A stretch of DNA of 64,000 nucleotides from an uncultured Planctomycetia bacterium (GCA_964566255.1 CAZMID010000004.1:3441-67440); one strand, 5' to 3'; positions 27,271 to 63,137 are shown, counted from the stretch's first letter. The notes: generated by a model from the sequence alone, not told the origin. Program-made: numbers and translations.

Positions 27271-27285
27271 AATAACCTTCCTTAG

Positions 27286-30460: not shown

Positions 30461-30461
30461 C

Positions 30462-44939: not shown

Positions 44940-45493
44940 GCAATAACTCCTTTTATACGTCGAGTCAATGCCTCTGGCATAAGAGAAATTCTGGCAGCAT
45001 CTTTTAAACTCTCTGATTCGACTTTTAAGAGTAAAAAAGAAGGACCAGTCTCTTCTATGACATGCGAAAATATCCTAGTCAACTCATTCTCTTTATCGAT
45101 TTTATACACATGATCATATCCTGCCCCACTAGCAATACGTGAAAGATCGATGTCCTTTGAAATGCTTGGTTGATTGCCTGTCGATTGATAAGACTCATTA
45201 TCCAAAACAATATGTATGAGATTTTTTGGTTTAAATGAAGCTGTCATAGCCATGCTCCCCATGTCCATCAAAATACTACCGTCTCCATCGAATATTACTA
45301 CTTTCTTATTAGTATTCAACGCAATCCCTAGACCTACTGCTGAAACAAGACCCATAGATCCAAGCATATAAAAATTGGCCTCTCTATCTTTGGCGCAAAA
45401 AGCATCTCTACTAATCATGCCAGTAGTAAAAAGCGCTACATCCTCATCCTTTAATAAATCCAGTATTACCGTTATAGCGTCGAATCTCTTCAT
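44936..45493 (-). CDS. Phosphonopyruvate (or sulfopyruvate-type) decarboxylase, beta subunit (TPP-binding PP domain)
   Basis: 185 aa; TPP motif GSMGLVSAVGLGIALN...VVIFDGDGSILM...N; follows a PYR-domain ORF and a PEP mutase. Confidence 0.7.
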   Translation of the reverse strand: MKRFDAITVILDLLKDEDVALFTTGMISRDAFCAKDREANFYMLGSMGLVSAVGLGIALNTNKKVVIFDGDGSILMDMGSMAMTASFKPKNLIHIVLDNESYQSTGNQPSISKDIDLSRIASGAGYDHVYKIDKENELTRIFSHVIEETGPSFLLLKVESESLKDAARISLMPEALTRRIKGVIA

Positions 45494-45978
45494 CCTACCA
45501 TTCCTTTCTTCAGGATAATAGCAACAGGCCTGGAGCTCTTATTCATTTCTTCAACTGCCCAATCAATATCCTTTGTAAAATCTTCAGTCAATATTAGAGT
45601 CGGGATACCTAATTCCTTAAGTAAAGGTAACATCTTCTTCCCCATAATAATATGCTCGGGCTCGTCTTGCTGCTGATACCCCCGCCAGGTAATAAACATT
45701 AATACAGGAACCTTGTAAATAAGGTTAAAGGATGTAAGGGCATTAATAATGTTTCCCAGGCCTGAATTTTGAATTAATATACCACTTTTCCTGCCTGCTA
45801 GATAAGCGCCGCTAGCTATACCTAAAGCCGCATTTTCTCTAACTGCCGGGATATAGTCTATATCAGAATCACTTAACGAACCCTTTAATATCTCTTTTAA
45901 GATAGAACAAGGGACTCCGGAAAAAAAAGTAAACCCTTTCTTTTTTAAATGGTCCCAAAAATTATAATACGAAATCAT
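45490..45978 (-). CDS. Phosphonopyruvate decarboxylase, alpha subunit (TPP PYR domain)
   Basis: 162 aa; FFSGVPCSILKEI, ENAALGIASGAYLAG: TPP pyrimidine-binding domain as in split ComD/ComE-type and Ppd enzymes. Confidence 0.7.
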   Translation of the reverse strand: MISYYNFWDHLKKKGFTFFSGVPCSILKEILKGSLSDSDIDYIPAVRENAALGIASGAYLAGRKSGILIQNSGLGNIINALTSFNLIYKVPVLMFITWRGYQQQDEPEHIIMGKKMLPLLKELGIPTLILTEDFTKDIDWAVEEMNKSSRPVAIILKKGMVG

Positions 45979-45990
45979 ATTATTTCTGCC

Positions 45991-47649: not shown

Positions 47650-49132
47650 TTTGATCTCCTTTGACTTTCCTAATAATTCTATTCATTAAGCTAATAGGCT
47701 TCTGGTTTAAAAAAATATTAATTTTTACCTTTATAGAATCACTTAGTTTCTGAAACTGTAATTTTAACTTCAGCATGGCCAATATCATTTTCCTCTTCTT
47801 ATACCATGCATATTTAATGTCTCTAGATAATGCCTCTATCCTTTTCTGCAGAGTCTTATTGCTAAGACTGGAGTAATTTATAACCAAACGAGATGCATTT
47901 TCAAGCCTTACCATATACTCATCAACATTTTGAATTATCCCTTTTGACAAAGCATATTCAAAAAGTGTTGACCCGGGATAAGCTGTAGCATAGAAAGTAC
48001 CTATCGTCTTAACGTCTTCTCCGATTAAAAATTCCTTTGTTTCTTCAATTGTTTCAATTGTCTCTGATGGCATCCCAAATACCATTGTAGGACTAGCATA
48101 AATACCAACTTCATTACACCATCTAATAGCCTTTCTATTCTCTTCTACAGTAATCTGCTTATTCATTTCCCTTAGGATAGTTGGGCTACCGCTTTCAATT
48201 CCAACATCTATCTCGTAACAATGGGTATCTTTTAAAATCCTCAAAAGCTCTCTATCTAAACTATTAGCACGTGCATTTATCCGATATGGTATATCCAAAC
48301 CGCTTGCTTTGTATTTTGCGCAAAAATCTATCACCCAATCACGATGCATAGTCATTAATTCATCTGCTATGCAAAATAAATCAGGAGAATATTTTCTACT
48401 TACAATAACCATATGCTCAATAAATCTATCTACGGAATGCTGCACAAAATGCTGTCCAAAATTCCTAGAACAGAAGAAACAATTGTAAGGACATCCTCTA
48501 CTGGAAAATAATACAAACTCAAAAATCTTTTTGCGTTTATCCTTCTGTCTAATATAGTCCCATTGTGTACTACTGGGGTTGATAAAATTGCGATAATAAT
48601 CAATATCTATCAAATCATATGGCGGAATCATAACCTCAAAATCCATGTCTTTCACATGAAGACCTGGCTTGATGACAACCTTTTCATCTCTGCGATATCC
48701 AATCCCATCAAGGTCATCTAAAGCCTTATGGTGTAGAAGGCGTTCTGTCAACTCAGAAACTATAGGTTCACAATCACTGGTAACTATGACATCTACATCA
48801 ATGAATTTTAAGAAAGTTTCTGGCATTGTCGAGGCAACAGATCCACCTGCCATAATTGGGATAGAATCTCCGTATTTCCGGCGGAATAGCGGGACAAATT
48901 CCTTCCAAAAATAGTAAGATGTGGAAATTCCTGTAATACCAAGTATATCAAAATCCAACGCAGCTATATCCTGAAAAGTTTCATAAGGAGTATGTTTTTT
49001 TATGTGAGAATCAACTATTTGTATCTTGTGTCCATTTGCTTTAAGTACGGCGGCAACTGCTAAAAGGCCATGGGGTATTTCGTTCATTGGCCGACTGCGA
49101 TATGTTGGACCCAACAGTAATATATTCGCCAT
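47618..49132 (-). CDS. Cobalamin(B12)-binding-domain radical SAM enzyme (class B), copy D
   Basis: 504 aa; ILLLGPTY...PHGLLAVAAVLKANGHKIQIVD, SRGCPYNCFFCSRNF. Confidence 0.8.
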   Translation of the reverse strand: MANILLLGPTYRSRPMNEIPHGLLAVAAVLKANGHKIQIVDSHIKKHTPYETFQDIAALDFDILGITGISTSYYFWKEFVPLFRRKYGDSIPIMAGGSVASTMPETFLKFIDVDVIVTSDCEPIVSELTERLLHHKALDDLDGIGYRRDEKVVIKPGLHVKDMDFEVMIPPYDLIDIDYYRNFINPSSTQWDYIRQKDKRKKIFEFVLFSSRGCPYNCFFCSRNFGQHFVQHSVDRFIEHMVIVSRKYSPDLFCIADELMTMHRDWVIDFCAKYKASGLDIPYRINARANSLDRELLRILKDTHCYEIDVGIESGSPTILREMNKQITVEENRKAIRWCNEVGIYASPTMVFGMPSETIETIEETKEFLIGEDVKTIGTFYATAYPGSTLFEYALSKGIIQNVDEYMVRLENASRLVINYSSLSNKTLQKRIEALSRDIKYAWYKKRKMILAMLKLKLQFQKLSDSIKVKINIFLNQKPISLMNRIIRKVKGDQNENNKTKKPF

Positions 49133-49144: not shown

Positions 49145-50650
49145 CTAAAACCTCAATAGGGCGAGTCTTTTAATAATGCGTCTATTATCAGGAGATAATA
49201 AGTTATACCCAACTACTTGAGTTATTCCGTAAATAAACGCCATTATCGTAATAATCTGAAATACATTTATACCCTTCATGAATCTTTGTGCTATAAAAGA
49301 TAAAAAGAAACATAAGAAAAAATGTGGTACATTCGGCACAACAGCCTTACGAAGAAAGTCCAGAACAGAAATCGATAGAATCCTACAATAACGAAATACA
49401 TAAAAATTTGATGCTAAAATCCATGGAATAGCTGTACCCCATGCTACTCCTGTAATACCTATAAATCTTATAAGTAAAAGGCTCAAGCCTAAATTGGCCA
49501 CTGCTACAAAACCATTGATCCTTACGGGCTCAATAATCTTGCCCTTGCCTCCGACTACAGCCTGACTTAATATTGCTATCATGATATTAAAAAACCAATA
49601 ACTTAAAAGAATCTTACAGGGTAATATAGAACCTGAAAACCTTACACCGACCCACGCTAAAATAAAGTCATCCACGCTTATCAATGCAATGATAACAATA
49701 GGGATTAATATGCCTGAATGAATCCTCGTCGCATTAATCACCATAGCGTCTCTATTGTTTTTATTCTGCTTGGCAAATTCTGCTACTATAACAGGATATA
49801 ATGGGCTGCCGAGTAAGGCATTAAGCCTTCTTATATAAGTATGAATGATAAAAGCAATAGAATATACTGCAACAGCATTAACACCTAAAATAGCCCCGAT
49901 TATAAGGTTGTCAATCTGATATATAATAAGCCCAAAAATACTGGCGACAAAATACCATCCGCTAAATTTAATAAGTTTATCCCTTAAAGACCTTGGAATA
50001 GGTCTTAATCTGAAACGAAAGTTAGGTATGAGCTTTATTGCAACGACGATGTTCACACAAGAAACTACAACAGTAATAAACTGCAATAGGGCTATGTAAA
50101 ATAAATATGATCCTGAATATGTCAATACTATCAGGGCAAGCGGAATGTTAAAAATTGAAATGACCAGGCTGACCTTACTTATAATATCCATCCGTTGAAA
50201 TCCTTTGAGTACCCCCTGAAATGGAATAACAACCCATACAAACATAGATGAAACTGCATATATTAATAATAAAATCCGACCCTTCACAACTAATTCTGCC
50301 TCTATATGGAATAACCTCTCATAAAAAAAGGACAGGGCAAATAAGGAAATAGCCACTAAAATTCCCAAAACTACAAAAAACTTAATACCGAAATGTAAGA
50401 TATCTGATACTCGATCCTGTTTTCCTTCGCCAAAAAATACTGCAGTAAATCGCGATATCCCTGAAGCCAATCCAAAATCCAATATATTAAAATAACCAAC
50501 AATAGATAATATCAAAACATTCAACCCATATAATCCTAAATCAACATGTCTCAGGATAAAGGGTATCAGAAAAAAACTAGTCAAAACCAAAATGAACTGG
50601 GAATAAGCCGAAAACTGTAAATTGCGACCTAATCTATCTACTACTGACAT
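49145..50650 (-). CDS. Polysaccharide biosynthesis membrane protein, Wzx-like flippase (MOP superfamily)
   Basis: 501 aa, about 12-14 TM helices, Wzx-like N-terminus (RLGRNLQFSAYSQFILVLTSFFLIPFILRHV...GLYG...ILDFGLASGISRF). Confidence 0.6.
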   Translation of the reverse strand: MSVVDRLGRNLQFSAYSQFILVLTSFFLIPFILRHVDLGLYGLNVLILSIVGYFNILDFGLASGISRFTAVFFGEGKQDRVSDILHFGIKFFVVLGILVAISLFALSFFYERLFHIEAELVVKGRILLLIYAVSSMFVWVVIPFQGVLKGFQRMDIISKVSLVISIFNIPLALIVLTYSGSYLFYIALLQFITVVVSCVNIVVAIKLIPNFRFRLRPIPRSLRDKLIKFSGWYFVASIFGLIIYQIDNLIIGAILGVNAVAVYSIAFIIHTYIRRLNALLGSPLYPVIVAEFAKQNKNNRDAMVINATRIHSGILIPIVIIALISVDDFILAWVGVRFSGSILPCKILLSYWFFNIMIAILSQAVVGGKGKIIEPVRINGFVAVANLGLSLLLIRFIGITGVAWGTAIPWILASNFYVFRYCRILSISVLDFLRKAVVPNVPHFFLCFFLSFIAQRFMKGINVFQIITIMAFIYGITQVVGYNLLSPDNRRIIKRLALLRF

Positions 50651-52496
50651 TTATTTCTCCTTGCACAAAACGTTCATATTCAGTATAAGAAAATTGTCTT
50701 ACATAGGTATCAATAAATCCACGGGCCCTTACATCTACCCCTTCTAATGATTCTGTTTTTAAAAAATCTGCTAATTGCGACTTAAGCTCATCTATAGTTT
50801 GAGAATAAACTACCCTCTCCTTAAGGAGAATAAGGGCATCTTCCCCTATTGACCATGATTCCTGATTAACCATCAGAAAAACTGGTCCAACATACTGTTT
50901 AAGGACCTGCAAGAGTACAGTTGATGGATTATCAAGGATAACGAAATCATAATTACTAACTAAGGCCTTATTTATTAAAATATCGCTATACGAAACCGAA
51001 CCATAGCCTTTCTCTTTTATATATCTACTCAGTTCAAGATGCGCTTGATGACCTTTTAATCCCTTAACTACTAGTTCTGTCTCGGTATTAGAGCCAAAAA
51101 AATCGATTATTTGTCTAGTTGCCTCGAACTGCAACACACTATTCCACTTAACCCGACCTTGACTATAAAAATTACCAATTACAGCTGGTATAAAAAGTCC
51201 CTTCTTTGAAGTGGGTAAGCTATTTACCTCAGAACCATCTCGAACTAGCTTCCTGTTAAACATATTTGACCCAACCTGAACACAAACAAAAGAACTATCT
51301 TCTTTAGATCCCGCTATACCATTGGAATCGTTCCTTCCAAAAGATAAAAAATAGTCAGCGGCCTTATAATCCGAAACATGCTGCAGAAAATGACTGCTAT
51401 ATCCATAAAACCCGCCATGCTGCCATACCGCTATTTTTCCATTAGCTTCTTTTGTCTTTTTAATAAGAAAATATGAGCTTAAGTGGACAGGGGCTAAACT
51501 GAAAATCATCAAATATTGCTTCTGACTATCCAAACAGGTATGCCAAAATAAATCCACATAATCTTGCATCCACATTGTATCATTTAAATATTGGACAATA
51601 GTATTATGAAACCTTTCGGCAAAATCAAATTCAAAGTCAAAGAATTTGCAGCGATAAGGCTTGGTTACCGACGTAGTGCAATCAGAACTACTCTTCTTAA
51701 GAAAACTCCTAGTAATCAGAAAGCGGAATAATTTACTCCATGAATGTAGATATGGCATTCGCCCGCCATGAAAAACCTGAGGAAATAAACTGCGAGAAGA
51801 ATAGACCCTATTATAATTAATTTTATTATCGTATCCGGGCCTAACCAAAATACAATCATGGTCTTTTCTGTTAAATGATAACACCTTCCAATAAATAAAT
51901 TTTAACGTATGCAAAAAAGGATTTAAATCAGATCTCTGATTATAAAAAATCGTCCTGGGTTTCTTTCGAAGGTCTCCACGATTCAGGCATCTGGTCTTTA
52001 CGCCTTTACTTTCAAAAAAATCTCTAACTAAACTACTAAATGAAGCCATTTCGAGCAATAGACCACCTTCATTCAACACCCTGTTTCTCTGTATCAAAAT
52101 AACTTCTTCCACTGGGCATTGATTTAACAAATCATTGCAAAATGAAATGATTCTATGGGTTGCGACCCAAATAGATAGCCAAAAATATTCCAGTGGAAAA
52201 GAACCCTCTGATGCATTATCGACAACCTTATTATTCAAACATAGCTCTTTTAAGAATTTTTGAGATTCCCCATAAAGTCTTTGCGTAAGAATAGAGCAAT
52301 CAACCTTTTCGCTTATGCGAGGAAGAAAATAATTTTTTTCAACTTCCTGCCACATAAGCTGCATCATAGGCAAAAAAGTAATAGGAAACCAGCAAAATTC
52401 CTTTGGAAGCACCTCTTTATAGAGTCCCTTAAAAGCTACAAAATCATTCTCATCAATTAAAATACAGGCTGTTTTATAATTAGATTTTTCTTTCAT
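50634..52496 (-). CDS. Hypothetical protein (620 aa), possible distant TagF-like CDP-/CMP-dependent phosphotransferase
   Basis: No strong motif; VWQHGGFYGYSSHF faintly resembles the WHG block of glycerophosphotransferases; soluble. Confidence 0.3.
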   Translation of the reverse strand: MKEKSNYKTACILIDENDFVAFKGLYKEVLPKEFCWFPITFLPMMQLMWQEVEKNYFLPRISEKVDCSILTQRLYGESQKFLKELCLNNKVVDNASEGSFPLEYFWLSIWVATHRIISFCNDLLNQCPVEEVILIQRNRVLNEGGLLLEMASFSSLVRDFFESKGVKTRCLNRGDLRKKPRTIFYNQRSDLNPFLHTLKFIYWKVLSFNRKDHDCILVRPGYDNKINYNRVYSSRSLFPQVFHGGRMPYLHSWSKLFRFLITRSFLKKSSSDCTTSVTKPYRCKFFDFEFDFAERFHNTIVQYLNDTMWMQDYVDLFWHTCLDSQKQYLMIFSLAPVHLSSYFLIKKTKEANGKIAVWQHGGFYGYSSHFLQHVSDYKAADYFLSFGRNDSNGIAGSKEDSSFVCVQVGSNMFNRKLVRDGSEVNSLPTSKKGLFIPAVIGNFYSQGRVKWNSVLQFEATRQIIDFFGSNTETELVVKGLKGHQAHLELSRYIKEKGYGSVSYSDILINKALVSNYDFVILDNPSTVLLQVLKQYVGPVFLMVNQESWSIGEDALILLKERVVYSQTIDELKSQLADFLKTESLEGVDVRARGFIDTYVRQFSYTEYERFVQGEINVSSR

Positions 52497-52507: not shown

Positions 52508-53392
52508 TTAATATTGTTCTTTATATTTTAGAGTATCTTGTAAAAATTGATACGATTGGACTACTTTATCAATATCCAAATGTCGACCTTCAAAAATCAC
52601 TGGGATATCCTTGAAAAAATTGTCTCGCAAAACCTCCATATACCAGCCATCGCTTCTTAGGGCCTCGTGGTCGTCTTCCAATCCTTCGTTGTGACTAAGT
52701 TCAACTGCTACTATTCGAGGTTTTAACATCTCAATCACTCTATATTTATCAAAACTCCAGGCATAAGCTGCCAGGTTCAAATGTCCTAAGTTAAGGTTTA
52801 TGCCTATCTTTCTATCTTGGACCTCTTTTAGAAAAATAAAGAAATCATCTGGTTTTGAAAAAAGAACAAAATCCTTTTTTGAGACAGACCCTTGAGTCTC
52901 AACAGCTACTGTAATCGCTCTATCATTTATATACCGGGCAATCTCTTTTAGAGAGTCCAGAAAAATATTAAAACATTGCATATAATCAGGGAGCGGAACA
53001 GATGAATCTGGTAATGAAAAATCAAAGTCATAATTCTTTGATGATCGGGCCTCTCCTATCGGATCAACTAAGAAACCTGGATGTATTGTGTAAATCTTGG
53101 CGCCTATTGCCTCAGCAAAATCAATGGAATACTTGATAAACTCCAGACTCTTTCGGCGTATCTGATCATTGCAAGAGGCAATATTTAATATAATGCGTTC
53201 CGAAAGAGGAGGAAAAAAATTATGGACAATATAACTACATCTTATTTCCTTAAGTAAAGGCCCTAATCTCCTTTCACAACAATGTATAGATCCCAATTCT
53301 ATGTTAAAAATATTCTTTTCAGTAAGAAGACTTACCGCTTTGATAACTGAACTTTGATTCTGCATAAATGTCGTAGAAACGTAAACAGGCAT
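52508..53392 (-). CDS. Xylose-isomerase-like TIM-barrel protein (sugar-phosphate isomerase/epimerase family), tentative
   Basis: 294 aa; alternating conserved H/E/D residues (IHPGF, ETQG, NLGHLN, ELSHNEG) compatible with AP-endo2/xylose isomerase-like fold. Confidence 0.4.
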   Translation of the reverse strand: MPVYVSTTFMQNQSSVIKAVSLLTEKNIFNIELGSIHCCERRLGPLLKEIRCSYIVHNFFPPLSERIILNIASCNDQIRRKSLEFIKYSIDFAEAIGAKIYTIHPGFLVDPIGEARSSKNYDFDFSLPDSSVPLPDYMQCFNIFLDSLKEIARYINDRAITVAVETQGSVSKKDFVLFSKPDDFFIFLKEVQDRKIGINLNLGHLNLAAYAWSFDKYRVIEMLKPRIVAVELSHNEGLEDDHEALRSDGWYMEVLRDNFFKDIPVIFEGRHLDIDKVVQSYQFLQDTLKYKEQY

Positions 53393-53406
53393 AATATAAA
53401 TAAATC

Positions 53407-54057
53407 TTATTTTTGTAGATCAGTCTTGTGTCTAATTTCTTGAGCTGGCACTCCTACTACTGTAGTTTCAGGCAGGACATCTTTCCTCACGAGTGCCGCA
53501 GCTCCAACTATAGCCATGCGCCTGATAACTACATTCTCTAAAATAGATGCCCCCATACCTAAAAAGGCTGATTCTTCGATCTTCACTTTACCTGCAATAT
53601 CAACTCCTGGATTAATATTTACAAAATCTCCAATTTCCACATCATGACCTATGGAAACATTGGAGTTTATTATTACTGAATTTCCGATATTGACATTCGT
53701 ATTAATCGTAACGTTCGGATAAATCACGACTCCTTGGCCCAAAGAAACATCCGAAGCAACAACCGCTGAAGGATGCACTATGTTTATTGGCTTGAAACCA
53801 ATATCGCATATTTTTCTAAACAAAACCTTTCGCGTAGCTATCTCGCTCACTGCAACAAAGGCATAAGTCACATTTTGTCTGATAATACGCTCCAGTAAAT
53901 TATCATCGCCTAGAACAGGTATATCATTTATCAATATCCCCTTTCTAATTGAGCTGGGATCAGTAAAACCAATAATTCTATATTCATTGCTAGGTTGTAA
54001 AAAAGAAAGGGCTTCTCGAGCAAAAGCGCCAGTTCCTAAAATAACAACATTTCTCAT
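53407..54057 (-). CDS. PglD/NeuD-family sugar N-acetyltransferase (N-terminal Rossmann-like + hexapeptide LbH)
   Basis: 216 aa; VVILGTGAFAREAL...IIGFTD then hexapeptide repeats. Confidence 0.75.
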   Translation of the reverse strand: MRNVVILGTGAFAREALSFLQPSNEYRIIGFTDPSSIRKGILINDIPVLGDDNLLERIIRQNVTYAFVAVSEIATRKVLFRKICDIGFKPINIVHPSAVVASDVSLGQGVVIYPNVTINTNVNIGNSVIINSNVSIGHDVEIGDFVNINPGVDIAGKVKIEESAFLGMGASILENVVIRRMAIVGAAALVRKDVLPETTVVGVPAQEIRHKTDLQK

Positions 54058-54116
54058 ATAAACTTCCTATTTTATCTGATTCGATATAAATGTTGTAGAC
54101 ACAAAAATAGACATAT

Positions 54117-55064
54117 CTAGGACAAAATCATTCCGACTTTTAAATCTTTATTTTTAAAAAAATTATATGCTAAAGAACTATCGCCTTTATCTTCCCAACC
54201 AGCTTTCATCAGGCTAACATAACCATCTGATGCGGCAACAACAATGCCTTTTCCTTGCGTTACTTCTACAATTTCACCATTTATTCTCTTTTTAGAAGGT
54301 TTTACATTAGTCTTGCACTCCTTTGCCTCCCATATTAAAAGCTTTCTGTTATTATACATAGTGAAAGCTGGTTTAAATGGAGGAAAACATAACGCTCGTA
54401 TTAAAGTAACAACTTCTCTTTTATCTTTTTTCCAATCAATTTCTCCTCTAAAAGGAACCTGTCTTCCGTAATATTGAGCCAAAGTATGATCTTGTTTGAT
54501 ACTTTGAACCTTACCGCGCTTTTCAAAAAGTAGCAGCTTTTCTTTAAATAAATCTATCGCTCGTTCGCCTACTTTCTGATACAATGAAAATGCAGTATCT
54601 CTATTAGAAATCGTCACTTTTTTTATATCGATAATATCTCCAGCGTCAATTTCAGGTTCAATATAATGCATTGTAACACCTGTCTCTTTTTCTCCATTTA
54701 TAATGCTCCAGGCTCCTGAATAACAACCTCTGTATTTAGGCAATAATCCACCGTGTAAATTAATAGCACCATAACAAGGTATATCCAATATAGCCTTTGG
54801 GATAATCTTTGGATAATAACAAGAAAAGATTATATCAGGTTTTAAAGCATCAATTTTAGCTATAAATTTCTCACTCTTTAAATCAATCGAGTTTAGCATA
54901 TTCAAATTGTTCTCTAGTGCGATTTTCTTAACAGAACGACACCATGTATCTATACCTCTATCATCTGGAGACACAGCAACCCCAACAATATTTTTATTGC
55001 TTTTAAGTAGATATTCTAAGCAATAAGCTCCTACATCTCTATAACCCAATAGTAATATCTTCAT
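54117..55064 (-). CDS. Sugar N-formyltransferase (second copy, formyl_trans_N family)
   Basis: 315 aa; AINLHGGLLPKYRGCYSGAWSIINGEKETGVTMHYIEPEIDAGDI. Confidence 0.75.
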   Translation of the reverse strand: MKILLLGYRDVGAYCLEYLLKSNKNIVGVAVSPDDRGIDTWCRSVKKIALENNLNMLNSIDLKSEKFIAKIDALKPDIIFSCYYPKIIPKAILDIPCYGAINLHGGLLPKYRGCYSGAWSIINGEKETGVTMHYIEPEIDAGDIIDIKKVTISNRDTAFSLYQKVGERAIDLFKEKLLLFEKRGKVQSIKQDHTLAQYYGRQVPFRGEIDWKKDKREVVTLIRALCFPPFKPAFTMYNNRKLLIWEAKECKTNVKPSKKRINGEIVEVTQGKGIVVAASDGYVSLMKAGWEDKGDSSLAYNFFKNKDLKVGMILS

Positions 55065-56125
55065 TTTTCCATTTCAGTTTTTAACATCTTCCAGTCTATA
55101 ACGCTATCTTTTTGTATAAACGCTTTGACCCTTTTACCTATAAGAGAATCAATGAATTTTGGCTGGATTCCTGTTCCTGGCCTTTTTGTAACAAGCATAT
55201 CTCGAGTTATTGTCTCATTTTTATTTATATCTACTTTACTAACTACACTCTTCCTTAATTTTATACGATTCTCTTTTTCTGATTCAGCAGGTTTTTTGAT
55301 AGAACTACCTAGTGTTAGCTCTGTAGTACGTATATCATGAACAAGCCTTTTTAATTCTTGAGGATTTAGTGAACTTTTATGATCAGGACCCGGTAGATTT
55401 TTATCAAGTGTAAAATGTTTTTCGTATAAAACAGCTCCTAATACAGTAGCAGCAATTGGATTAATATAATCTGGCGTATGGTCAGAGTACCCCACTAAAA
55501 GGTTAAATTCCTCCCTCAATAGAGAGATTACTCTCAAATTTGTATCTTCCAATTTGGCAGGATAATTTGCTGTGCAATGAAGTAGTATCAGGTCTTGGTA
55601 ACCTTCGTTTCTTATAGTATCAATGCCTTCTTTAACCTCTTCCAGCGTACACATGGCGGTGGACAAAATGATTGGACGCTTCTTGCGTGCTAAATATTTA
55701 AGAAAAGGGATGTTATTGGCATCTGTAGATGCTACTTTAAAGGCAGGAATATCCAAATCCTCCAGCATGTCAGCACTCTTCTCATCGTAAGGCGTAGAAA
55801 GAAACATAATTCTCATTTTATTACAGTGTTCTATCAATGCCTCATGAGCATATCTATCGAGTTCCTGACTCTTCAGCAAATCAAACCAAGACTGCTCCAT
55901 GCCTGTGGTTTCAATATGATAAGTAGATTTTGGAGCGGTTTTGGTATTCAGATTCTCTGCTTTAAAAGTCTGGAATTTCACAGCATCTGCACCAGATTCT
56001 TTAGCTAGTTCAATCATCTTTTTAGCCAGTTCAATATCACCATTGTGATTAACGCCGGCTTCTGCAATAATAAATACTGGCTCTCCTTCACCAATAATTC
56101 GATTAGCAATCTTTATCTTCTTCAT
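55061..56125 (-). CDS. Nonulosonic acid synthase (NeuB/PseI/LegI family) with C-terminal SAF domain
   Basis: 354 aa; FIIAEAGVNHNGDIELAKKMIELAKESGADAVKFQTF (NeuB N-terminal signature), SDHT metal site, C-terminal SAF-like region. Confidence 0.85.
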   Translation of the reverse strand: MKKIKIANRIIGEGEPVFIIAEAGVNHNGDIELAKKMIELAKESGADAVKFQTFKAENLNTKTAPKSTYHIETTGMEQSWFDLLKSQELDRYAHEALIEHCNKMRIMFLSTPYDEKSADMLEDLDIPAFKVASTDANNIPFLKYLARKKRPIILSTAMCTLEEVKEGIDTIRNEGYQDLILLHCTANYPAKLEDTNLRVISLLREEFNLLVGYSDHTPDYINPIAATVLGAVLYEKHFTLDKNLPGPDHKSSLNPQELKRLVHDIRTTELTLGSSIKKPAESEKENRIKLRKSVVSKVDINKNETITRDMLVTKRPGTGIQPKFIDSLIGKRVKAFIQKDSVIDWKMLKTEMEK

Positions 56126-56823
56126 TTACTCATTTTCTCCCACCATGGATATAAAAGTTCAGCAATCTTGAAATCAAGTTCAGTATCTATGTCAACAGCG
56201 GCTATATCACCCATCTTTATAAAACCGACTTTATCTCCATATATACTTTTCTTGTCTAAGATAGTCTCCCTTTTTATCACCTCAATAGTCCCATTGCCCT
56301 GATATACCTTAGGAAGATCTTGTCGTCTCGTCAGTTCATACCCTGTCTCAATAAAATTTACCAGCCTATCTTCAGCGATCCTTTTCATCCAATATGGCGG
56401 ATAAACTGCTTTTGATATTGCCCTAATAGAATCAAAATCAGATTCAAAAATCCTCTTTATCGCTTTATCAATTTCATCAGCAGTACGAAATATACTAGTA
56501 GGTCGTAAAAAAACAATATAATCCGGCTTCCAATTATGCGCATCAAACCAGAGTAGGGCATGTTCAATCACAGAAAAATCAGAAGCAGTATCTTCTGCGA
56601 GTTCACCGGGTCTCAAAAATGGAACTTCAGCACCATATTTCTTGGCCACATCAGCTATCTCCTGATCTTCAGTAGAAACTACAGTCCTACTTATAAATTT
56701 ACTCTTTAATGCTTCTTCAATCGCGTAAGCAACCAAAGGTCTATCCTTTAAAAGCCTAATGTTTTTGCGTTTTATCTCTTTTGATTTTCCACGTGCAGGT
56801 ATTAAACCAAGGACATTCTTCAT
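56122..56823 (-). CDS. CMP-nonulosonic acid synthetase (acylneuraminate cytidylyltransferase family); start re-called at internal ATG
   Basis: LGLIPARGKSKEIKRKNIRLL and FLRPTS motifs of the NeuA/PseF/LegF family. Starting at MKNVLGLIPARG removes the overlap with the upstream methyltransferase. Confidence 0.8.
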   Translation of the reverse strand: MKNVLGLIPARGKSKEIKRKNIRLLKDRPLVAYAIEEALKSKFISRTVVSTEDQEIADVAKKYGAEVPFLRPGELAEDTASDFSVIEHALLWFDAHNWKPDYIVFLRPTSIFRTADEIDKAIKRIFESDFDSIRAISKAVYPPYWMKRIAEDRLVNFIETGYELTRRQDLPKVYQGNGTIEVIKRETILDKKSIYGDKVGFIKMGDIAAVDIDTELDFKIAELLYPWWEKMSK

Positions 56824-56824
56824 T

Positions 56825-57646
56825 CTATGCCTCCATCTTTCTGGCATACGTTGTCATTATATTGCCATAAAAAGGCGGTGATATTTTACCCTTATCAAAT
56901 AATCGAATAAGATTTTTAATAGTAAAATAATCTGTTGTAAAAAAGGGGGTTTCTTTCTTTATAACCCTGTATCCAATCTTATTTAACAATAATTGTACGG
57001 TCTTCTCTGAAAACATCGTTAAATGCTCTTTTCCTAATAATCTAAAGTTACCCTTGAATCTTTTTGCACAGAAACTACTCACATTCGGTAATCCAATAAT
57101 TACAATGCCATTCTTCTTCATGATCGTTTTGATCATCTGCATGAATTCAAGTGGATCCACTAAATGTTCAATTACATGATAAAGCACTACTATATCAAAA
57201 TATTCTCTTGGAAAGGTGTTCTTATCTAGTAAGTCCTTGCATATATTAATTTCCTGGTAGTTGTCTTTTATATACTCTACGCATACATCTGAAATCTCAA
57301 GGCCGTATTTTTCATGTTTATTAGAAATAGCGGAAAGCAAAAAACCTGGGCCACACCCCACATCAAGAAGTCTCCCCGAAGACTGTCTGTTGATAAACGA
57401 AGGTATCCTACCATACCAATTTTTTAATTTGGGACTTCTTTCTAAAAGCATGTTTCTCTTTTTCCCATCAGGATCAAGTGATTGCTGCCAATAGTCTTCC
57501 TTGTATTCCATCTCCAGATAGGGGTTCTGGATAATAAGACTACAATTAACGCATTCGACAAACTGGTTATTTTGCCAATCATAAAAAGTAAACTTAAAGT
57601 CACTCCCCTTACATAAGGGACAATTTTTTCTATATAACTTTTTCAT
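56825..57646 (-). CDS. Class I SAM-dependent methyltransferase with N-terminal Cys4 zinc ribbon
   Basis: CPLCKGSDF...CVNCSL, motif I LLDVGCGPGFL; start probably at MKKLYRKNCPLC. Confidence 0.7.
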   Translation of the reverse strand: MKKLYRKNCPLCKGSDFKFTFYDWQNNQFVECVNCSLIIQNPYLEMEYKEDYWQQSLDPDGKKRNMLLERSPKLKNWYGRIPSFINRQSSGRLLDVGCGPGFLLSAISNKHEKYGLEISDVCVEYIKDNYQEINICKDLLDKNTFPREYFDIVVLYHVIEHLVDPLEFMQMIKTIMKKNGIVIIGLPNVSSFCAKRFKGNFRLLGKEHLTMFSEKTVQLLLNKIGYRVIKKETPFFTTDYFTIKNLIRLFDKGKISPPFYGNIMTTYARKMEA

Positions 57647-58376
57647 GACTAATGATATGTTTATTTTTAAATGCAACTAAGTATAAAAAAGACAAGATGA
57701 AAAGCCATAAAGAAATAGACTTATAAAATGTCTTCTCTGGAATCAATGGCAGATCTTCCTTCTCAGAAAAGACAACTCGCCTATCTTCATCCATAATATC
57801 AAAGGATATATAATTCCTGCCTGGCTTTTCAAAACTGAAATTGGCAAGTACCCTTACCTCATTCAGCCCTAATTGTAAAAATTTGGTAATTTCTATCACT
57901 GGGAAGTCTTTTTTATATTCGCGATTAGTGCCAAATGTTTTGTTATAATCAGGTACCCAGTTAAACTCTACAAAATTGTCATTGATGTAAAGCCTGTAAA
58001 GCTCTTGCGTCTTGATACGCATAAAATACTTATCCCTTTTATCTATCTCTATCTGTCCGGACAATTCATAATTCCTTCCGTGCATAAAATACTGGTCAAC
58101 CTTATTCCCATCAAACACTATATTCTCTGGATAATGCCGCCTCCTAATAGACCTTGCGTATGCATGGTAAGAATCGTATAAATCAGCTATCCTATTATTG
58201 TCTCCTTCCTTATTTAGCAAAATATTTTTGAATTCGCTCCAAAAAGGATAGCGATCGACCTTTAAAAAAATTATCCCAGTAAAAACTGACCATGTTACGG
58301 TCAATAGTATCAAAGTAATAATAACTATGATGTTCTTGAGCGGTAGGCCTTTGATAATACGCGTATCTTCTAACAT
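57630..58376 (-). CDS. Hypothetical bitopic membrane protein
   Basis: 248 aa; N-terminal TM helix, ~180-aa extracytoplasmic domain, C-terminal TM helix. No motif recognised. Confidence 0.4.
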   Translation of the reverse strand: MLEDTRIIKGLPLKNIIVIITLILLTVTWSVFTGIIFLKVDRYPFWSEFKNILLNKEGDNNRIADLYDSYHAYARSIRRRHYPENIVFDGNKVDQYFMHGRNYELSGQIEIDKRDKYFMRIKTQELYRLYINDNFVEFNWVPDYNKTFGTNREYKKDFPVIEITKFLQLGLNEVRVLANFSFEKPGRNYISFDIMDEDRRVVFSEKEDLPLIPEKTFYKSISLWLFILSFLYLVAFKNKHIISHEKVI

Positions 58377-58389
58377 CTAAAACTCCTAA

Positions 58390-59616
58390 TTATCTAGTAA
58401 CTACTAAAAAATTGCTCTTCTTCACTAAAGACACTAGCCAGATCAATATAAGTGCCGGAAGAAGTGCTACGCCTCCTATAAAATGAAAAGACTTAACAAA
58501 ACATTCTGGATAAAGCCAATAATTATAAAAACTCTTCATGGATGTCAATGGAACAAACTGATGATAATTTGCATATTGATTTGTTTCGAAAATCAAGTAT
58601 TGAGAGAAATTCAACTGCCATATAAACCCTAAAACAGAATATAGACAAAAAAGTTTATCTATAAAGATAACACCTATCGGAATAACCCAATATAAATACT
58701 GCGATGCCAAAACTGGAGATAAAATATAAACAACGAGTATAGTTATCAAAAGTAATGCCAAGATATTTGTTTTTCTGCCAACATACCCAATAATAACTGC
58801 AGAGATAATTATAATAAATTTTGAAAATTTAGCATAAACTCTTATTAAATCTCCGATGGTAGCTAACTCAAAGAAAGGAATCCCCCATCCAAGATGTCCA
58901 CCACCGCTATAACCAAGCATTGACCTAATGCTTCTAATAATCAAAAGTTGGTCTAACAACAGCAAAAAAGGCAAGATACACCCCAATATATAGATCAAAA
59001 GAAAACCTCTTTTATCTTTTGCATGAGGCCTCTTGAAAAAGAAAGCCGGGAGACAGAAAATAACATACGGCTTAAAATATGTAGCTAACAACAATGTCAA
59101 TGGAATAGCTACATTTTTATGTCTTTCTGCCCAGGAATGCGATAATTCAATATAGACTGCTAGCAGGATAAAAAAGAATACCTGCTGATCAAATTGCCCA
59201 TGCAGTGCAGTAAGCTGAAAACTCATGGGATTAAAAATATAAGCAGCGCATACAAATAATGAAAATCTGTCAGATTTTCCCATTTGTCTTGTGATTTTAA
59301 ACAATAAGAACATAATTCCTATGTCTGCGAAAATATCAGCTAATCTCATCCAAAACGAGTAAAAGAGTCCAAAATGATCTACAAAGACTCCAAAGATATA
59401 CCCAAATACATAAATTGAAGGAAAATATGGTATCCCTATAGGTATTTGACCATCAATCAAATATTCATTATAAGATTCGAGGTTCGAAGGATCGCCATGC
59501 CCTTTAAAAAGATAAGCAAATGCCAATCTTATTAACACGCCTAAAAATAATAAAATGGCGTATTTGATATAATCTCTACGGCAAGCCTTATCTTGTAATG
59601 TCGCTTTAAAAAACAT
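58390..59616 (-). CDS. Polytopic membrane protein, possible GT-C-fold polyprenyl-phosphate-sugar-dependent glycosyltransferase (DUF2029/PMT_2-like)
   Basis: 408 aa, about 10-11 TM helices, first loop rich in aromatic/acidic residues. Immediately downstream of a DPM1-like GT2. Confidence 0.4.
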   Translation of the reverse strand: MFFKATLQDKACRRDYIKYAILLFLGVLIRLAFAYLFKGHGDPSNLESYNEYLIDGQIPIGIPYFPSIYVFGYIFGVFVDHFGLFYSFWMRLADIFADIGIMFLLFKITRQMGKSDRFSLFVCAAYIFNPMSFQLTALHGQFDQQVFFFILLAVYIELSHSWAERHKNVAIPLTLLLATYFKPYVIFCLPAFFFKRPHAKDKRGFLLIYILGCILPFLLLLDQLLIIRSIRSMLGYSGGGHLGWGIPFFELATIGDLIRVYAKFSKFIIIISAVIIGYVGRKTNILALLLITILVVYILSPVLASQYLYWVIPIGVIFIDKLFCLYSVLGFIWQLNFSQYLIFETNQYANYHQFVPLTSMKSFYNYWLYPECFVKSFHFIGGVALLPALILIWLVSLVKKSNFLVVTR

Positions 59617-59619
59617 AAA

Positions 59620-60318
59620 TCATCTTCCTTTCAACCTGAAGTAAAACATCTCTTTTAATCCAGAAAAAGCAGCGGGGATATGCCTAATTGACCTTCTGCC
59701 TTTTACGCGCTTCAAATAAGCTATAGGGATTTCTTTTATAGATAATTGCATACTTTTACTTTTTATAGCAACTTTTGTTGTTGTCATAATAGGGTGGATA
59801 TCAAGTATGCCTAAAACAGGTAAGAGCTTTTCCCTCCTGTATAATTTAAAGGCGCAATTAGGATCTCTTAAGAATATGCGAAAAAGAATCAAGGTTAATA
59901 AAATATTCCCTATCGTGAAAAAAATACGCTCCCTGCTATCCCTATGGGTTATATTTCGAACTCCCCATATAGCATCGTAATCATCGCGATACTTCCATAA
60001 CTTCCAGATATCCTTAGGATAATGTGAATAATCGGCATCTGCCCACATAACATAATCCTTAGAGGCATACTTAAGTCCTTTAAAAACTGTTTCGCCATAT
60101 CTTTTATTTTTCTCATTATTTAATACAACAACTTGGGAGAACTGTCCTTTTAACTTTCTTAGTATCTGTGATGTAGAATCTGTTGAAGCGTCATTAACTA
60201 TAATTATCTCAAAATCGTCTAAATGCCTACTAAGCTCAGCATGCCAATCACACGTAAAACGCTGAATATTATCTTCTTCGTTATAACACGGGACCACAAG
60301 ACTTAATGACGGTTTCAT
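59620..60318 (-). CDS. GT2 polyprenyl-phosphate sugar synthase (DPM1/ArnC-like), soluble form
   Basis: 232 aa; LSLVVPCYNEEDNI, IIVNDASTDST, DADYSHYP (DAD motif). Confidence 0.8.
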   Translation of the reverse strand: MKPSLSLVVPCYNEEDNIQRFTCDWHAELSRHLDDFEIIIVNDASTDSTSQILRKLKGQFSQVVVLNNEKNKRYGETVFKGLKYASKDYVMWADADYSHYPKDIWKLWKYRDDYDAIWGVRNITHRDSRERIFFTIGNILLTLILFRIFLRDPNCAFKLYRREKLLPVLGILDIHPIMTTTKVAIKSKSMQLSIKEIPIAYLKRVKGRRSIRHIPAAFSGLKEMFYFRLKGR

Positions 60319-60339: not shown

Positions 60340-61716
60340 TTAAATACCGGCAACTTCTGCTTCTCCTGCCAAATCAACTAAATAATCATACCAGCCAAAA
60401 ACTTCCTTTGCATTACGATGGGCGATCCGAGGACGCTTGGAACCACCACATTCCTCTTTTCGCTGAAAATTACCTATTGTCTGAAATTCTGAAAAGTCTT
60501 TCAGGCGCTCAGGTACCCAATGTATAGGGTCTGCCAAGGCCTCTTGGTACGAAACTGTCCCCGGCAAAGGCTGAAAGATATGAAAACTAAATTTCACTTT
60601 CCCATTTGTTTCACTAATGATCCTCTTTACATATTCGCCTGTCAGCTTAACATCACTTGACGTCTCATAAGGTAGGCAACCTGTTATCATCTGGGCCCTG
60701 ACCTTCAAATTATACTTTGCAGTTAAAAGTAAGGCCTTGTAATTTTGCTCAGATGTATTCTGCTTATTCAAACCCGCTAATACCTGATCAGAAAAATGTT
60801 CCACACCAAAAACTATCCCCACGCATCCAGAATCTACCATCATCTGCAACTTCTTCTCATCTATATGATCTGTTCTTCCCAGGCAAAGCCAATCCAACCC
60901 AGACCGAGACATCTGTTTACATAATTCATCAAGCATATCTTTCTTGGTCAACATGTCATCATCATCAAAATATACCCTATTTATTCCCCATCGCTTTTTA
61001 TGCTGTATAAGTTCATCTACGGCATTTTTTATATTGCGATGGCGAATCCATTTATGACCGGCTTGACCACTCATGCAAAACTTACATCTGCTATAACATC
61101 CACGACTGACCATTACATTAAATTGTAAATCATCTTTATGTTTGTTCAGATAGCTGTATACACCGGGCTTTAGATAACGGTAGATGCCATAATCTTCAAA
61201 CCGTAATGGATAATATTTTTCAATATCTCTTTCCAGTGGCCGTTTACCTGTATCAATAATACTTCCATCTTTACTTAAAAAGACAAGACCGGGAATATTC
61301 GAGATATCTTTCTGACTGGTCATTAATTCCAATATGCATTCTTCGCCCTCACCATTAACTGCAATATCAGCATTACGACTACGTAAACAATCCTCGGGAA
61401 GCGCTATAGCATGAGCGCCTCCGATAACTATCCGCGCCGATGGATTTCTAGATTTTAAAAATGTCGCTAATTCCTGGGCATAAAATATTTGACAGGTTAC
61501 GGCGGAGATGCCATAGAGATCGGCATCTGGAATTACATCCCATGATTCCTGCTTGGTTCCAGCTAAATCTACCAACGTGGAATCAACACCGTTCTTTCGC
61601 AAATAAGAATGGATAGACAAAGGGCCCCTTGCCATAATCTCAGTGTCGGATTTTAAATGGGATGTCGGAAGATTTATTATTACTATCCTACTCCGATCCA
61701 CACCTTTTAAGATCAT
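60340..61716 (-). CDS. Cobalamin(B12)-binding-domain radical SAM enzyme (class B), copy E
   Basis: 458 aa; IVIINLP...GPLSIHSYLRKNGVDSTLVD, SRGCYSRCKFCMSGQ. Confidence 0.75.
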   Translation of the reverse strand: MILKGVDRSRIVIINLPTSHLKSDTEIMARGPLSIHSYLRKNGVDSTLVDLAGTKQESWDVIPDADLYGISAVTCQIFYAQELATFLKSRNPSARIVIGGAHAIALPEDCLRSRNADIAVNGEGEECILELMTSQKDISNIPGLVFLSKDGSIIDTGKRPLERDIEKYYPLRFEDYGIYRYLKPGVYSYLNKHKDDLQFNVMVSRGCYSRCKFCMSGQAGHKWIRHRNIKNAVDELIQHKKRWGINRVYFDDDDMLTKKDMLDELCKQMSRSGLDWLCLGRTDHIDEKKLQMMVDSGCVGIVFGVEHFSDQVLAGLNKQNTSEQNYKALLLTAKYNLKVRAQMITGCLPYETSSDVKLTGEYVKRIISETNGKVKFSFHIFQPLPGTVSYQEALADPIHWVPERLKDFSEFQTIGNFQRKEECGGSKRPRIAHRNAKEVFGWYDYLVDLAGEAEVAGI

Positions 61717-61745: not shown

Positions 61746-63137
61746 TCAGGTATAATTCCCTATAAACCTTCTTACTATGTTCCAAAAATTCGAAAAGGAA
61801 CCTAAATTTAAAAGTATCTTTGATAATATTAAAGGACGTAAATGAAATAACAGTATGGCTTTTTTTAACAGAATATCTACCTCTTTTTTGGAAAGATGTG
61901 GGGAGAAGCTTTTCACTACTTTATAATAAGACATATCACCGAAGTCTAAATCATCAAGCTGCCTGTCTTTCTTTAAATCAAAAAAGATCTGGCTTCCAGG
62001 GAATGGCGAAAAACTGGCAAATCCTCCACGTTCTATAGGTAGTCTTTTGGAAAATTCTATCGTATCTAAAATATCCTTACGCGTTTCAGTAGGATAGCCA
62101 ATAATAAACTGGCCTGTTATCCTCATTTTATATTTAGCCAAAAGATTAACTTTTTCCTCTATTTGACTAATATTCAAGTCCTTGTTCATATCATTTAAAA
62201 TTCTCTGAGAACCAGATTCAATCCCAACAGCAACCGCATAACACCCAGCCTCCTTCATAGCCTTAACAACTTCATCATCAATCGAATTTAATTGTATCCC
62301 GTTATTACAATTCCAGAGTATATTTAAACTACTCACTTTATCACAAAATTCTAAAACAGCGCTCTTTTTAAAAGTAAAGTTGTCATCTTGAATTATAATC
62401 TCCTTTACACCAAACCGCTTAACTAAATACTTTATCTCAGCAATAACATTATCTATGTTTCGATACCGAAATCCATTACCATAAACTGACTTTACAGTAC
62501 AAAAATTACATCTCATGGGGCATCCCCGGCTTATAGCTATAGGGACATTTGGAAATCTCTTAGCAAAAACACCTTGTGGCGCATGAGGATATAATGTTGG
62601 CTTAAGTAATTCCCAATCTGGCCAGGGCAATTTGTCAATGTCTCTTATGGATTCTTTTGCATTCTTGACAATTTCTCCATTTCTATTCCGCCAAACCAAA
62701 CCTGGGATACCATGCCAAGAGGCTCCACCTTCAGCTATCATATTTACCAGGGACAAAAAGGCCTGTTCACCTTCGCCTACAATAATAAAATCCAAATCAG
62801 GACCTAAATAATCCATCGTCTCATCCGGTAATGCAGAAGGATGAGGTCCACCTATGACTGTAATTATCTGCGGATTGTATGCTTTAATACAGCGGAGGTA
62901 TCCTTTTACTGTAGCTAGATCAACAGAATAGACTTGTATACCTACAACGCCTGGTTTTACATGACTCAAAAAATTATAAAAAGAATCTATTGTTGAAATT
63001 TTATCTCGGATTGCCTCACATAGAAAAACATCATGCCCACCTTTAAGTTTAAGCATCGAAGCTAAATAGCCCAAGCCCAAAGGAGGCGTAAATGAGTAAG
63101 AAAATTTATTAAATGGACGCGTCAGAAGTACTCTCAC
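61746..63137 (-). CDS. Cobalamin(B12)-binding-domain radical SAM enzyme (class B), copy F
   Basis: 463 aa; VLLTRPFNKF...PPLGLGYLASMLKLKGGHDVFLCE, SRGCPMRCNFCTVKSV. Confidence 0.75.
   Translation of the reverse strand: MRVLLTRPFNKFSYSFTPPLGLGYLASMLKLKGGHDVFLCEAIRDKISTIDSFYNFLSHVKPGVVGIQVYSVDLATVKGYLRCIKAYNPQIITVIGGPHPSALPDETMDYLGPDLDFIIVGEGEQAFLSLVNMIAEGGASWHGIPGLVWRNRNGEIVKNAKESIRDIDKLPWPDWELLKPTLYPHAPQGVFAKRFPNVPIAISRGCPMRCNFCTVKSVYGNGFRYRNIDNVIAEIKYLVKRFGVKEIIIQDDNFTFKKSAVLEFCDKVSSLNILWNCNNGIQLNSIDDEVVKAMKEAGCYAVAVGIESGSQRILNDMNKDLNISQIEEKVNLLAKYKMRITGQFIIGYPTETRKDILDTIEFSKRLPIERGGFASFSPFPGSQIFFDLKKDRQLDDLDFGDMSYYKVVKSFSPHLSKKEVDILLKKAILLFHLRPLILSKILLNLGSFSNFWNIVRRFIGNYT

Follow-up and report, generated by a model that had tools for sequence, protein, structure and literature searches.

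A nonulosonic acid module with a dedicated formyltransferase, and possibly without need of the usual epimerase, in an uncultured Planctomycetia bacterium

Results

Six intact genes on the minus strand of a 64,000-nucleotide stretch of DNA from an uncultured Planctomycetia bacterium (GCA_964566255.1 CAZMID010000004.1:3441-67440; the whole stretch is hereafter called the window) form a nonulosonate module at positions 52508-57646 that includes a dedicated formyltransferase and a methyltransferase, a reading that we regard as sound. We give an even chance to the further view that this segment encodes the late steps of an uncharacterised kind of cytidine monophosphate (CMP)-activated nonulosonic-acid pathway, one in which the customary epimerase is missing. 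The product of the module is probably a formylated nine-carbon acidic surface sugar in activated form, and probably also methylated. On the surface glycans of many bacteria and archaea, nonulosonic acids act as caps that decide how phages, predators, and immune systems recognise the cell; genome surveys predict them by the NeuB/NeuC/NeuA triad.

Organization of the module

The genes were delimited by open reading frame (ORF) calls and domain scans. In the order of transcription, they encode a zinc-ribbon class I S-adenosylmethionine-dependent methyltransferase (56825-57646; Methyltransf_23, E = 1.1e-20; ATG called at 57646, extendable to a TTG at 57676), a CMP-nonulosonate synthetase of the cytidylyltransferase type (56122-56847; CTP_transf_3, E = 8.9e-22; alternative called start at 56823), a NeuB-family nonulosonate synthase with a SAF domain (55061-56125; PF03102, E = 2.8e-90, 302.5 bits; SAF, 45.4 bits), a sugar N-formyltransferase (54117-55064; Formyl_trans_N, PF00551, E = 6.4e-26, 91.6 bits; Formyl_trans_C), a NeuD/PglD/PerB-type N-acetyltransferase with a left-handed beta-helix (53407-54057; TIGR03570, 206 bits against a cutoff of 160.8; PglD_N and Hexapep), and a xylose-isomerase-like protein with a triosephosphate isomerase (TIM) barrel (52508-53392; AP_endonuc_2, PF01261, 63.5 bits against a cutoff of 31.1). 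The packing is tight, as four of the genes overlap by a few bases and the maximum gap is 59 nucleotides. An earlier reading of this DNA, made from the sequence alone (the sequence-only reading), had listed these six genes as a nonulosonic acid module; all were found where it placed them, on the minus strand, and the domain and equivalog models bear out the assignment.

The module belongs to a single long polysaccharide locus that fills the window from about 12.2 kb onward; the window has a GC content of 35%, and nearly all of its genes are on the minus strand. Both the sequence and its gene calls are repeated on an independent metagenome scaffold (L001; here and below, L numbers denote individual loci), where the locus starts about 2.8 kb past the window end, in the order regulator, DegT aminotransferase, and Glf. 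Promoter and terminator scans gave background levels only.

Absence of the epimerase and linkage of the TIM barrel to NeuB

The sequence-only reading had seen no hydrolysing 2-epimerase for uridine diphosphate (UDP)-N-acetylglucosamine in the window, and the searches agree. A hidden Markov model (HMM) built from two NeuC proteins and Escherichia coli WecB recovered all three controls and had no match in the 64-kb window even at E ≤ 10, and none of the window ORFs gave a Pfam match to Epimerase_2. Among 25 loci seeded on the TIM barrel, 20 of them collected by the TIM barrel alone, the TIM-barrel gene adjoins NeuB in 23, with at most an acyl- or methyltransferase gene between them, and none of the 25 has an Epimerase_2 gene. 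The TIM-seeded loci span at least 10 phyla; the sources of the 20 are Planctomycetales, Omnitrophota, a Methanosarcinales archaeon, Pelagibacteraceae, Marinimicrobia, Oligoflexia, Verrucomicrobiota, KSB1, Chitinophagaceae, and several Alphaproteobacteria. A Pfam scan of the 131 otherwise unclassified neighbouring ORFs in the 25 loci detected no Epimerase_2, PseG-type, or NUDIX protein.

As a control, 80 metagenome loci were seeded on NeuB alone. Fifty-one carry only the epimerase, typically directly beside NeuB, six carry only the TIM barrel, two carry both, and 21 (mostly short contigs) carry neither. One of the two loci with both harbours a pair of NeuB modules; the epimerase gene of the other sits at the end of the contig, on the opposite strand. 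The exclusion between epimerase and TIM barrel gave a Fisher p value of 0.016 in the NeuB-seeded loci and of 1.4e-10 when these were pooled with the TIM-seeded loci. The sequence-only reading had listed the TIM-barrel protein without giving it a role; among the six genes it is the most diagnostic. No close homologue of the TIM barrel was found in plasmid and phage collections, where the sole match was a 23%-identical protein from an Azospirillum nonulosonate cluster. Literature searches on a TIM barrel in nonulosonate clusters, on SAR11 nonulosonates, and on NeuB with HddA/HddC returned nothing relevant.

Many TIM-type loci also possess, next to the CMP-synthetase gene, a distant second TIM barrel (276-283 amino acids), a class-IV aminotransferase accompanied by two short-chain dehydrogenases (SDRs), or both (L003 11142-14675; L007 13899-16862; L008-L010, L012, L015, L016, L018, and L020), and a comparable distant barrel occurs in the nonulosonate cluster of an Azospirillum plasmid (L032). 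This set may be an extra branch for amination or epimerisation.

A separate clade of NeuB synthases

The NeuB homologue of the window passes the cutoff of TIGR03569 (NeuB_NnaB, a model that includes NeuB and LegI; 421.1 bits against 399.65) and fails that of the PseI model (312 against 340). Its scores with solved relatives are 250 bits for Bacillus subtilis SpsE, 206 for PseI, and 177 for Neisseria meningitidis NeuB. Judged by these models, the synthase is a Neu/Leg-type enzyme rather than a PseI. When 112 NeuB homologues were placed in a neighbour-joining tree with 60 bootstrap replicates, one clade that includes the window protein holds 31 of the 33 TIM-linked homologues and none of the 52 epimerase-linked ones; under a relaxed criterion, namely an epimerase-free split with the window protein and at least 25 TIM-linked sequences, it was recovered in 53 of the 60 replicates. 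The sequence-only reading had proposed phylogeny for choosing among the NeuB, PseI, and LegI clades; the models place the protein with Neu/Leg over PseI, and the tree places it in a TIM-linked clade of its own.

Six clade-specific positions set the TIM-linked NeuB proteins apart from the epimerase-linked ones. The catalytic motif reads S-T-D in the window NeuB and its clade and S-G-E in the other types; the S-T-D form is found in 87% of TIM-linked clade members, against seven of the 52 epimerase-linked homologues. In the window protein, Asp135 takes the place of Glu134, the catalytic residue within the S-G-E motif of N. meningitidis NeuB. His216 and His237 are invariant and align with the 'SDHT' and 'ERHF' motifs of the N. 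meningitidis enzyme, whose metal-binding residues are His215 and His236. For the CMP-synthetase, the PseF model gave 171 bits against a cutoff of 205.7, and the best solved relatives are NeuA/CMP-Neu5Ac synthetases (111 and 97 bits).

The TIM-barrel protein

The TIM-barrel family shows 54% mean column identity across phyla; its members at E ≤ 1e-30, which include Pelagibacteraceae proteins, fall into about 480 clusters when grouped at 50% identity. An AlphaFold model of the window protein has eight strand-helix units and a predicted local distance difference test (pLDDT) score of 92.4. The closest fold is MJ1311 (PDB 3wqo), itself of no known function, followed with similar scores by ketose 3-epimerases, endonuclease IV (Endo IV; Nfo/APN1), and xylose isomerases. 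Because the fold alone does not decide function, we judged the invariant residues to be more informative.

Nine residues are invariant in the family: H57, H104, E165, N201, H204, E231, D240, H242, and E268. HMMER alignments to APN1 and MJ1311, combined with motif spacing relative to E. coli Endo IV, equate H104, E165, N201/H204, E231, D240/H242, and E268 with Endo IV H109, E145, D179/H182, H216, D229/H231, and E261, respectively. Counting H57, seven of the nine Endo IV metal ligands are kept (H57, H104, E165, H204, D240, H242, and E268), and the ligands are located at the expected strand ends. The TIM barrel nevertheless differs from Endo IV in a 25-residue insert after strand 4 and in having no DNA-binding context, and it scored 21.8 against a cutoff of 129.65 with the nfo model (TIGR00587), so it is not a member of the endonuclease IV family.

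Two histidines and a D-x-H pair mark the trinuclear phosphoesterase site of Endo IV, as opposed to the single E-D-H-E metal site of sugar isomerases and epimerases. This distinguishing ligand set is the reason for proposing that the TIM barrel may work like Endo IV and release the sugar: by analogy with the cleavage of the sugar-O3'-phosphate bond by Endo IV, it would cleave the sugar-O1-phosphate bond of a nucleoside diphosphate (NDP)-sugar.

The formyltransferase and the other tailoring enzymes

The formyltransferase scored 212 bits with both the PRK06988 and the ArnA models. Its solved relatives are ArnA (141 bits), a GDP-perosamine formyltransferase (114), Fmt (113), and PseJ (45), where GDP is guanosine diphosphate, and an Asn102-His104-Asp140 catalytic triad can be read in its sequence. 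An Fmt paralogue, the case that the sequence-only reading had named as fatal to its proposal, was rejected because the fmt model stayed below its cutoff (145.9 against 201.5) and ArnA is the best solved relative. From these comparisons, the protein is an ArnA/WbkC-like enzyme with the ArnA-N/Fmt fold and a C-terminal domain.

That the formyltransferase is dedicated to the module, as had been claimed, is supported by its genomic contexts. The start of its gene overlaps the NeuB stop. Its nearest homologues are 54-59% identical and include a 55%-identical copy in L033, where the order is NeuB-formyltransferase-TIM barrel and the acetyltransferase is absent, and one homologue is fused to a CMP-synthetase domain. 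In L019, L021, L023, L025, L033, and L088, a formyltransferase occupies the slot of the acetyltransferase with no deacetylase nearby; indeed, no deacetylase was found in the TIM-type loci, this window included. By contrast, in six of the seven cases of a formyltransferase in an epimerase-type locus, it is paired with a PIG-L deacetylase, and one likewise accompanies the formyltransferase in Halorussus (L028). The next tier of homologues (about 40% identity) consists of split-ArnA enzymes, which formylate the 4-amino group of a UDP-sugar. Because of the missing deacetylase and the position in the acetyltransferase slot, the formyltransferase most likely acts directly on the aminotransferase product, at the future N7, instead of or alongside acetylation.

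The window contains a second formyl-sugar set of the split-ArnA-like type (26341-33956, minus strand) with a GT2 glycosyltransferase (ArnC/PgfS-like), a formyltransferase 33% identical to that of the module, a DegT protein, and an SDR, followed by a WbpB/WbpD-like oxidoreductase and acetyltransferase and an AsnB-type amidotransferase.

For the acetyltransferase, the best solved relative is the perosamine N-acetyltransferase PerB (117 bits, full length), and the match to PglD (82 bits) covers only the C-terminal two thirds. The methyltransferase has an N-terminal CxxC...CxxC segment with weak zinc-ribbon matches at residues 12-51, and its solved relatives are only generic methyltransferases. 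Its inclusion in the module by the sequence-only reading is upheld by the closest relative, L002, in which a 64%-identical gene has the same position upstream of the synthetase gene.

Precursor supply

No locus protein reached the cutoff of the LegB, LegC, PseB, or PseC equivalog models. The highest scores were 175 against 475 for LegB (TIGR04180), 281 against 420 for LegC (TIGR04181; the DegT protein outside the window included), 353 against 423.5 for the PseC models, and 77 against 407.75 for the PseB model. PseB/PseG or LegB/LegG homologues, which the sequence-only reading had suggested might be found in the remainder of the locus, were thus absent at cutoff in model scans of the locus proteins, and no PseG of the GT28 type was seen. 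This result, together with the PseI and PseF scores, contradicts its pseudaminic-type prediction. Of its 5,7-diamino Pse/Leg prediction, the Neu/Leg side agrees with the type of the synthase, the Pse side fell, and the diamino character is unproven, with no LegB, LegC, or LegG equivalog. A hidden LegB or LegC among the SDR and DegT genes of the window was considered and rejected: none of the SDRs exceeds 27% identity to the SDR linked to the cluster in the relatives, and the only orthologous DegT lies outside the window.

This DegT protein, about 2.5 kb past the window end, is 66% identical to that of L003 and orthologous to the cluster-linked DegT of the relatives. Its best matches are GDP-perosamine synthase (205 bits), ArnB (193), PglE (140), and PseC (119). 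Perosamine-type enzymes are therefore the best solved relatives of both the DegT protein and the acetyltransferase, and the second-best group for the formyltransferase. In the relatives, the core genes are flanked by an HddA-like kinase with a CBS domain, a nucleotidyltransferase resembling HddC and mannose-1-phosphate guanylyltransferase, GmhA-like and GmhB-like proteins, and an SDR that matches PDB 6vo6 at 377 bits; GmhA/HddA/GmhB/HddC-like genes and the 6vo6-like SDR accompany NeuB in L002, L003, L005, L006, and other related loci. The 6vo6 structure is probably Cj1427, a GDP-heptose C4-dehydrogenase. The function of Cj1427 has been described (PMC10680097).

The front end of the relatives and the perosamine-like DegT protein, acetyltransferase, and formyltransferase point to a 4-amino sugar that is GDP-linked and manno-configured. 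Because its configuration at C2 is already the one required by NeuB, epimerisation may be unnecessary. A heptose-derived ten-carbon ulosonic acid is a possibility in the relatives with the Cj1427-like SDR; no literature on such an acid was found.

Discussion

Taken together, the data suggest the following pathway. The perosamine-synthase-like DegT enzyme would form an NDP-4-amino sugar, probably GDP-linked and manno-configured, and its 4-amino group, the future N7, would be acetylated by the PerB-like enzyme or formylated by the ArnA/WbkC-like enzyme. The TIM barrel, with its putative Endo IV-like multi-metal phosphoesterase site, would then cut the sugar-O1-phosphate bond to free the aldose, with no 2-epimerisation needed if the sugar is already manno. 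NeuB would join the aldose with phosphoenolpyruvate, and the product would be CMP-activated and methylated. The LIC12162-like protein described below would transfer it to a lipid-linked repeat unit, which Wzx would flip. The front end, comprising sugar activation and C4 oxidation or 4,6-dehydration, lies outside the module; the relatives supply it through HddA/HddC/GmhA/GmhB-like genes and a Cj1427-like gene, none of which is in the window. A mono-amino product (7-N-acyl, 5-hydroxy) is about as likely as a 5,7-diamino one, because the NeuB clade is distinct and unlinked to the epimerase and the partner enzymes are perosamine-like.

Whether the module represents an unrecognised variant of nonulosonate biosynthesis, epimerase-less, dependent on the TIM barrel, and served by its own synthase clade, is in our view evenly balanced. 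We hold only tentatively, and with clearly less confidence, the wider claim that a single pathway is shared across phyla (SAR11, Omnitrophota, Marinimicrobia, Planctomycetota, Verrucomicrobiota, and others), in which the TIM barrel replaces the epimerase, the NeuB clade extends a GDP-manno 4-acylamino sugar, and the product is an undescribed ulosonic acid; as part of that joint claim, this product would be either a 7-N-formyl/acetyl, 5-hydroxy hybrid of ketodeoxynonulosonic acid (Kdn) and legionaminic acid or, with the Cj1427-like heptose dehydrogenase, a ten-carbon acid.

Several observations weigh against these proposals. The function proposed for the TIM-barrel family derives from comparisons of sequence and modelled fold. 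Endo IV and ketose epimerases are not separated by the fold search, the TIM barrel departs from Endo IV at two of the nine ligands (D179 to N and H216 to E), and the equivalence of H57 with Endo IV H69, drawn through MJ1311, hinges on an inferred six-residue insertion. Alignments of the family with E. coli Endo IV by hhalign and hmmalign gave shifted, partial, and poor registers and were set aside. The exact NeuB clade split was recovered in none of the 60 bootstrap replicates. The loci of the relatives come from metagenome or single-cell assemblies viewed for about 10 kb on each side, and an epimerase may be encoded elsewhere in those genomes. The window has no counterpart of the Cj1427-like SDR, the kinase, or the nucleotidyltransferase of the relatives. 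The presence of both an acetyl- and a formyltransferase would also fit a sugar with two amino groups.

The strongest competitor, to which we assign roughly one chance in four, is canonical legionaminic acid biosynthesis, with LegB and LegG encoded elsewhere, the two N-acyltransferases of the module acting on N7 and N5 of a 5,7-diamino sugar, and the TIM barrel serving as an accessory tailoring enzyme, such as an epimerase of the sugar or of the nonulosonate. The synthase passes the NeuB/LegI-inclusive equivalog, the Joint Genome Institute (JGI) labels its homologues legionaminate synthase, ketose epimerases share the TIM fold, and the window has other SDR and DegT genes (15065-16027, 17216-18340, and 28218-30460). 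Formyl-legionaminic clusters with the formyltransferase by neuD also exist in Halorubrum (PMC6137143) and Kuenenia. However, the epimerase is beside NeuB in 51 of the 59 informative NeuB-seeded loci and essentially never with this clade, the LegB and LegC models stay far under cutoff, and the partner enzymes resemble those for perosamine, a GDP-manno sugar. The deacetylase is absent, whereas the formyltransferases of canonical loci pair with PIG-L. A pseudaminic-acid module is highly improbable: PseF and PseC are the best-named weak matches for the synthetase and some DegT proteins, but all Pse equivalog models fall below cutoff, PseB, PseG, and PseH are absent, and the synthase scores higher on NeuB_NnaB and SpsE than on PseI.

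Two further explanations concern single enzymes. The TIM barrel could be a sugar-phosphate phosphatase, either replacing GmhB after the HddA-like kinase or dephosphorylating a phosphorylated ulosonate, as in the routes of animal NANS/NANP and of Bacteroides Kdn-9-phosphate. Endo IV also has 3'-phosphomonoesterase activity, the TIM barrel adjoins the HddA-like kinase in many loci (the kinase is present in 16 of 25), and a GmhB-like haloacid dehalogenase (HAD) phosphatase occurs in only three of the 25. Yet the TIM barrel still adjoins NeuB where the kinase is missing (this window, L007-L010, L015, L022, and L033), it coexists with a HAD phosphatase in L005, L012, and L017, and the release of the free aldose would be left unexplained; we consider this explanation unlikely. 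It seems very unlikely that the formyltransferase works outside the nonulosonate pathway, as an Fmt paralogue or as an ArnA-type enzyme for the 4-amino-4-deoxy-L-arabinose (Ara4N)-like set of the locus. Homologues of about 40% identity do occur in split-ArnA clusters, and a similar set is present at 26341-30460, but that set has its own formyltransferase; the overlap with NeuB, the L033 arrangement, the fusion with a CMP-synthetase domain, and the fmt score all speak for the module.

The legionaminic pathway (LegB/C/H/G/I/F of Campylobacter jejuni and Legionella; Sps of B. subtilis) has in common with the module a NeuB/LegI-type synthase, a CMP-synthetase, a PglD/LegH-type acetyltransferase, and a DegT protein. 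Unlike that pathway, the module has no LegG/NeuC, its synthase is in a separate clade with S-T-D rather than S-G-E, the Endo IV-like TIM barrel is constant, and its relatives use a GDP-heptose-type front end (HddA/HddC/Cj1427-like). A formyltransferase amid neu genes, together with methyltransferases, is shared with the N-formylated nonulosonate clusters of Halorubrum sp. PV6, Halorussus, and Ca. Kuenenia, where it lies among the neuB, neuD, and CMP-synthetase genes (PMC6137143; bioRxiv 10.64898/2026.04.20.719630; L028). Those clusters, however, encode NeuC/LegG as well as a PIG-L or polysaccharide deacetylase, in keeping with deacetylation followed by formylation at N5; the module has neither, and its formyltransferase is about 27% identical to theirs. 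The DegT protein, acetyltransferase, and formyltransferase recall the GDP-perosamine pathway (Per, PerB, and WbkC), but perosamine is transferred as the GDP-sugar and the locus of the module has no GMD-type dehydratase. The operon instead includes NeuB and the CMP-synthetase, which implies release of the sugar and its extension by three carbons.

If the proposed pathway is true, the legionaminic acid label that these sugars currently receive in predictions is wrong, and enzymes have a further, new way to free a sugar from its nucleotide. A whole NeuB clade would apparently do without NeuC and be paired with a metallo-TIM barrel that is still uncharacterised and whose family includes abundant marine lineages. 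With no deacetylase beside it, the formyltransferase would be a possible second route to N-formylated ulosonic acids.

Flanking genes and other features of the locus

Past the TIM barrel, transcription proceeds through a gene for a 620-residue LIC12162-like protein (50634-52496, minus strand) and then a Wzx-type flippase gene (49145-50650, minus strand; Polysacc_synt, E = 2.4e-14, with MatE and Polysacc_synt_3 matches), which overlaps the end of the former. The sequence-only reading had placed Wzx upstream; it is adjacent, but transcriptionally downstream, after the LIC12162-like gene. The LIC12162-like protein matches TIGR04331 weakly (19.5 bits against a cutoff of 225) and is 39% identical to the protein at the same position in L002, which has a precomputed match to PF27859 (LIC12162). 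This family has been reported beside neu genes in Herbaspirillum (PMC6679464), and the protein is a candidate for the transfer of the activated sugar.

On the other side of the module, 57630-60318 (minus strand) encodes a GT2 protein (232 residues), followed by a 408-residue polytopic membrane protein and a 248-residue protein, the latter two without a Pfam match; the equivalent slot of L002 holds a GT2 and a PMT_2 (GT-C) protein. This comparison suggests that the region is a pair for periplasmic glycosylation, with a polyprenyl-phosphate-sugar and a GT-C enzyme.

A phosphonate biosynthesis set (40822-47649, minus strand) also lies within the polysaccharide locus. It includes a phosphoenolpyruvate mutase-nucleotidyltransferase fusion, a split phosphonopyruvate decarboxylase, a class-V aminotransferase of the aminoethylphosphonate type, a second nucleotidyltransferase, and a CDP-alcohol phosphatidyltransferase, where CDP is cytidine diphosphate, and suggests decoration of the glycan with (perhaps methylated) aminoethylphosphonate. 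It is bracketed by B12-radical-SAM genes at 43431-44939 and 47618-49132. Radical SAM genes are unusually dense in the locus, with six of the B12-binding type and one of the radical SAM/SPASM type in total, at 20178-21275, 21272-22774, 37151-38713, 60340-61716, and 61746-63137 in addition to these two, all on the minus strand.

Window positions 1-12039 (minus strand) hold the housekeeping genes ribD, ribE, ribBA, ribH, nusB, rmuC, and ligA and genes for a PHP-domain protein, a metallo-beta-lactamase-fold protein, an XerC/D-type recombinase, and a uracil-DNA glycosylase-family protein. Because it abuts these housekeeping genes, the polysaccharide locus is chromosomal and on no obvious mobile element.

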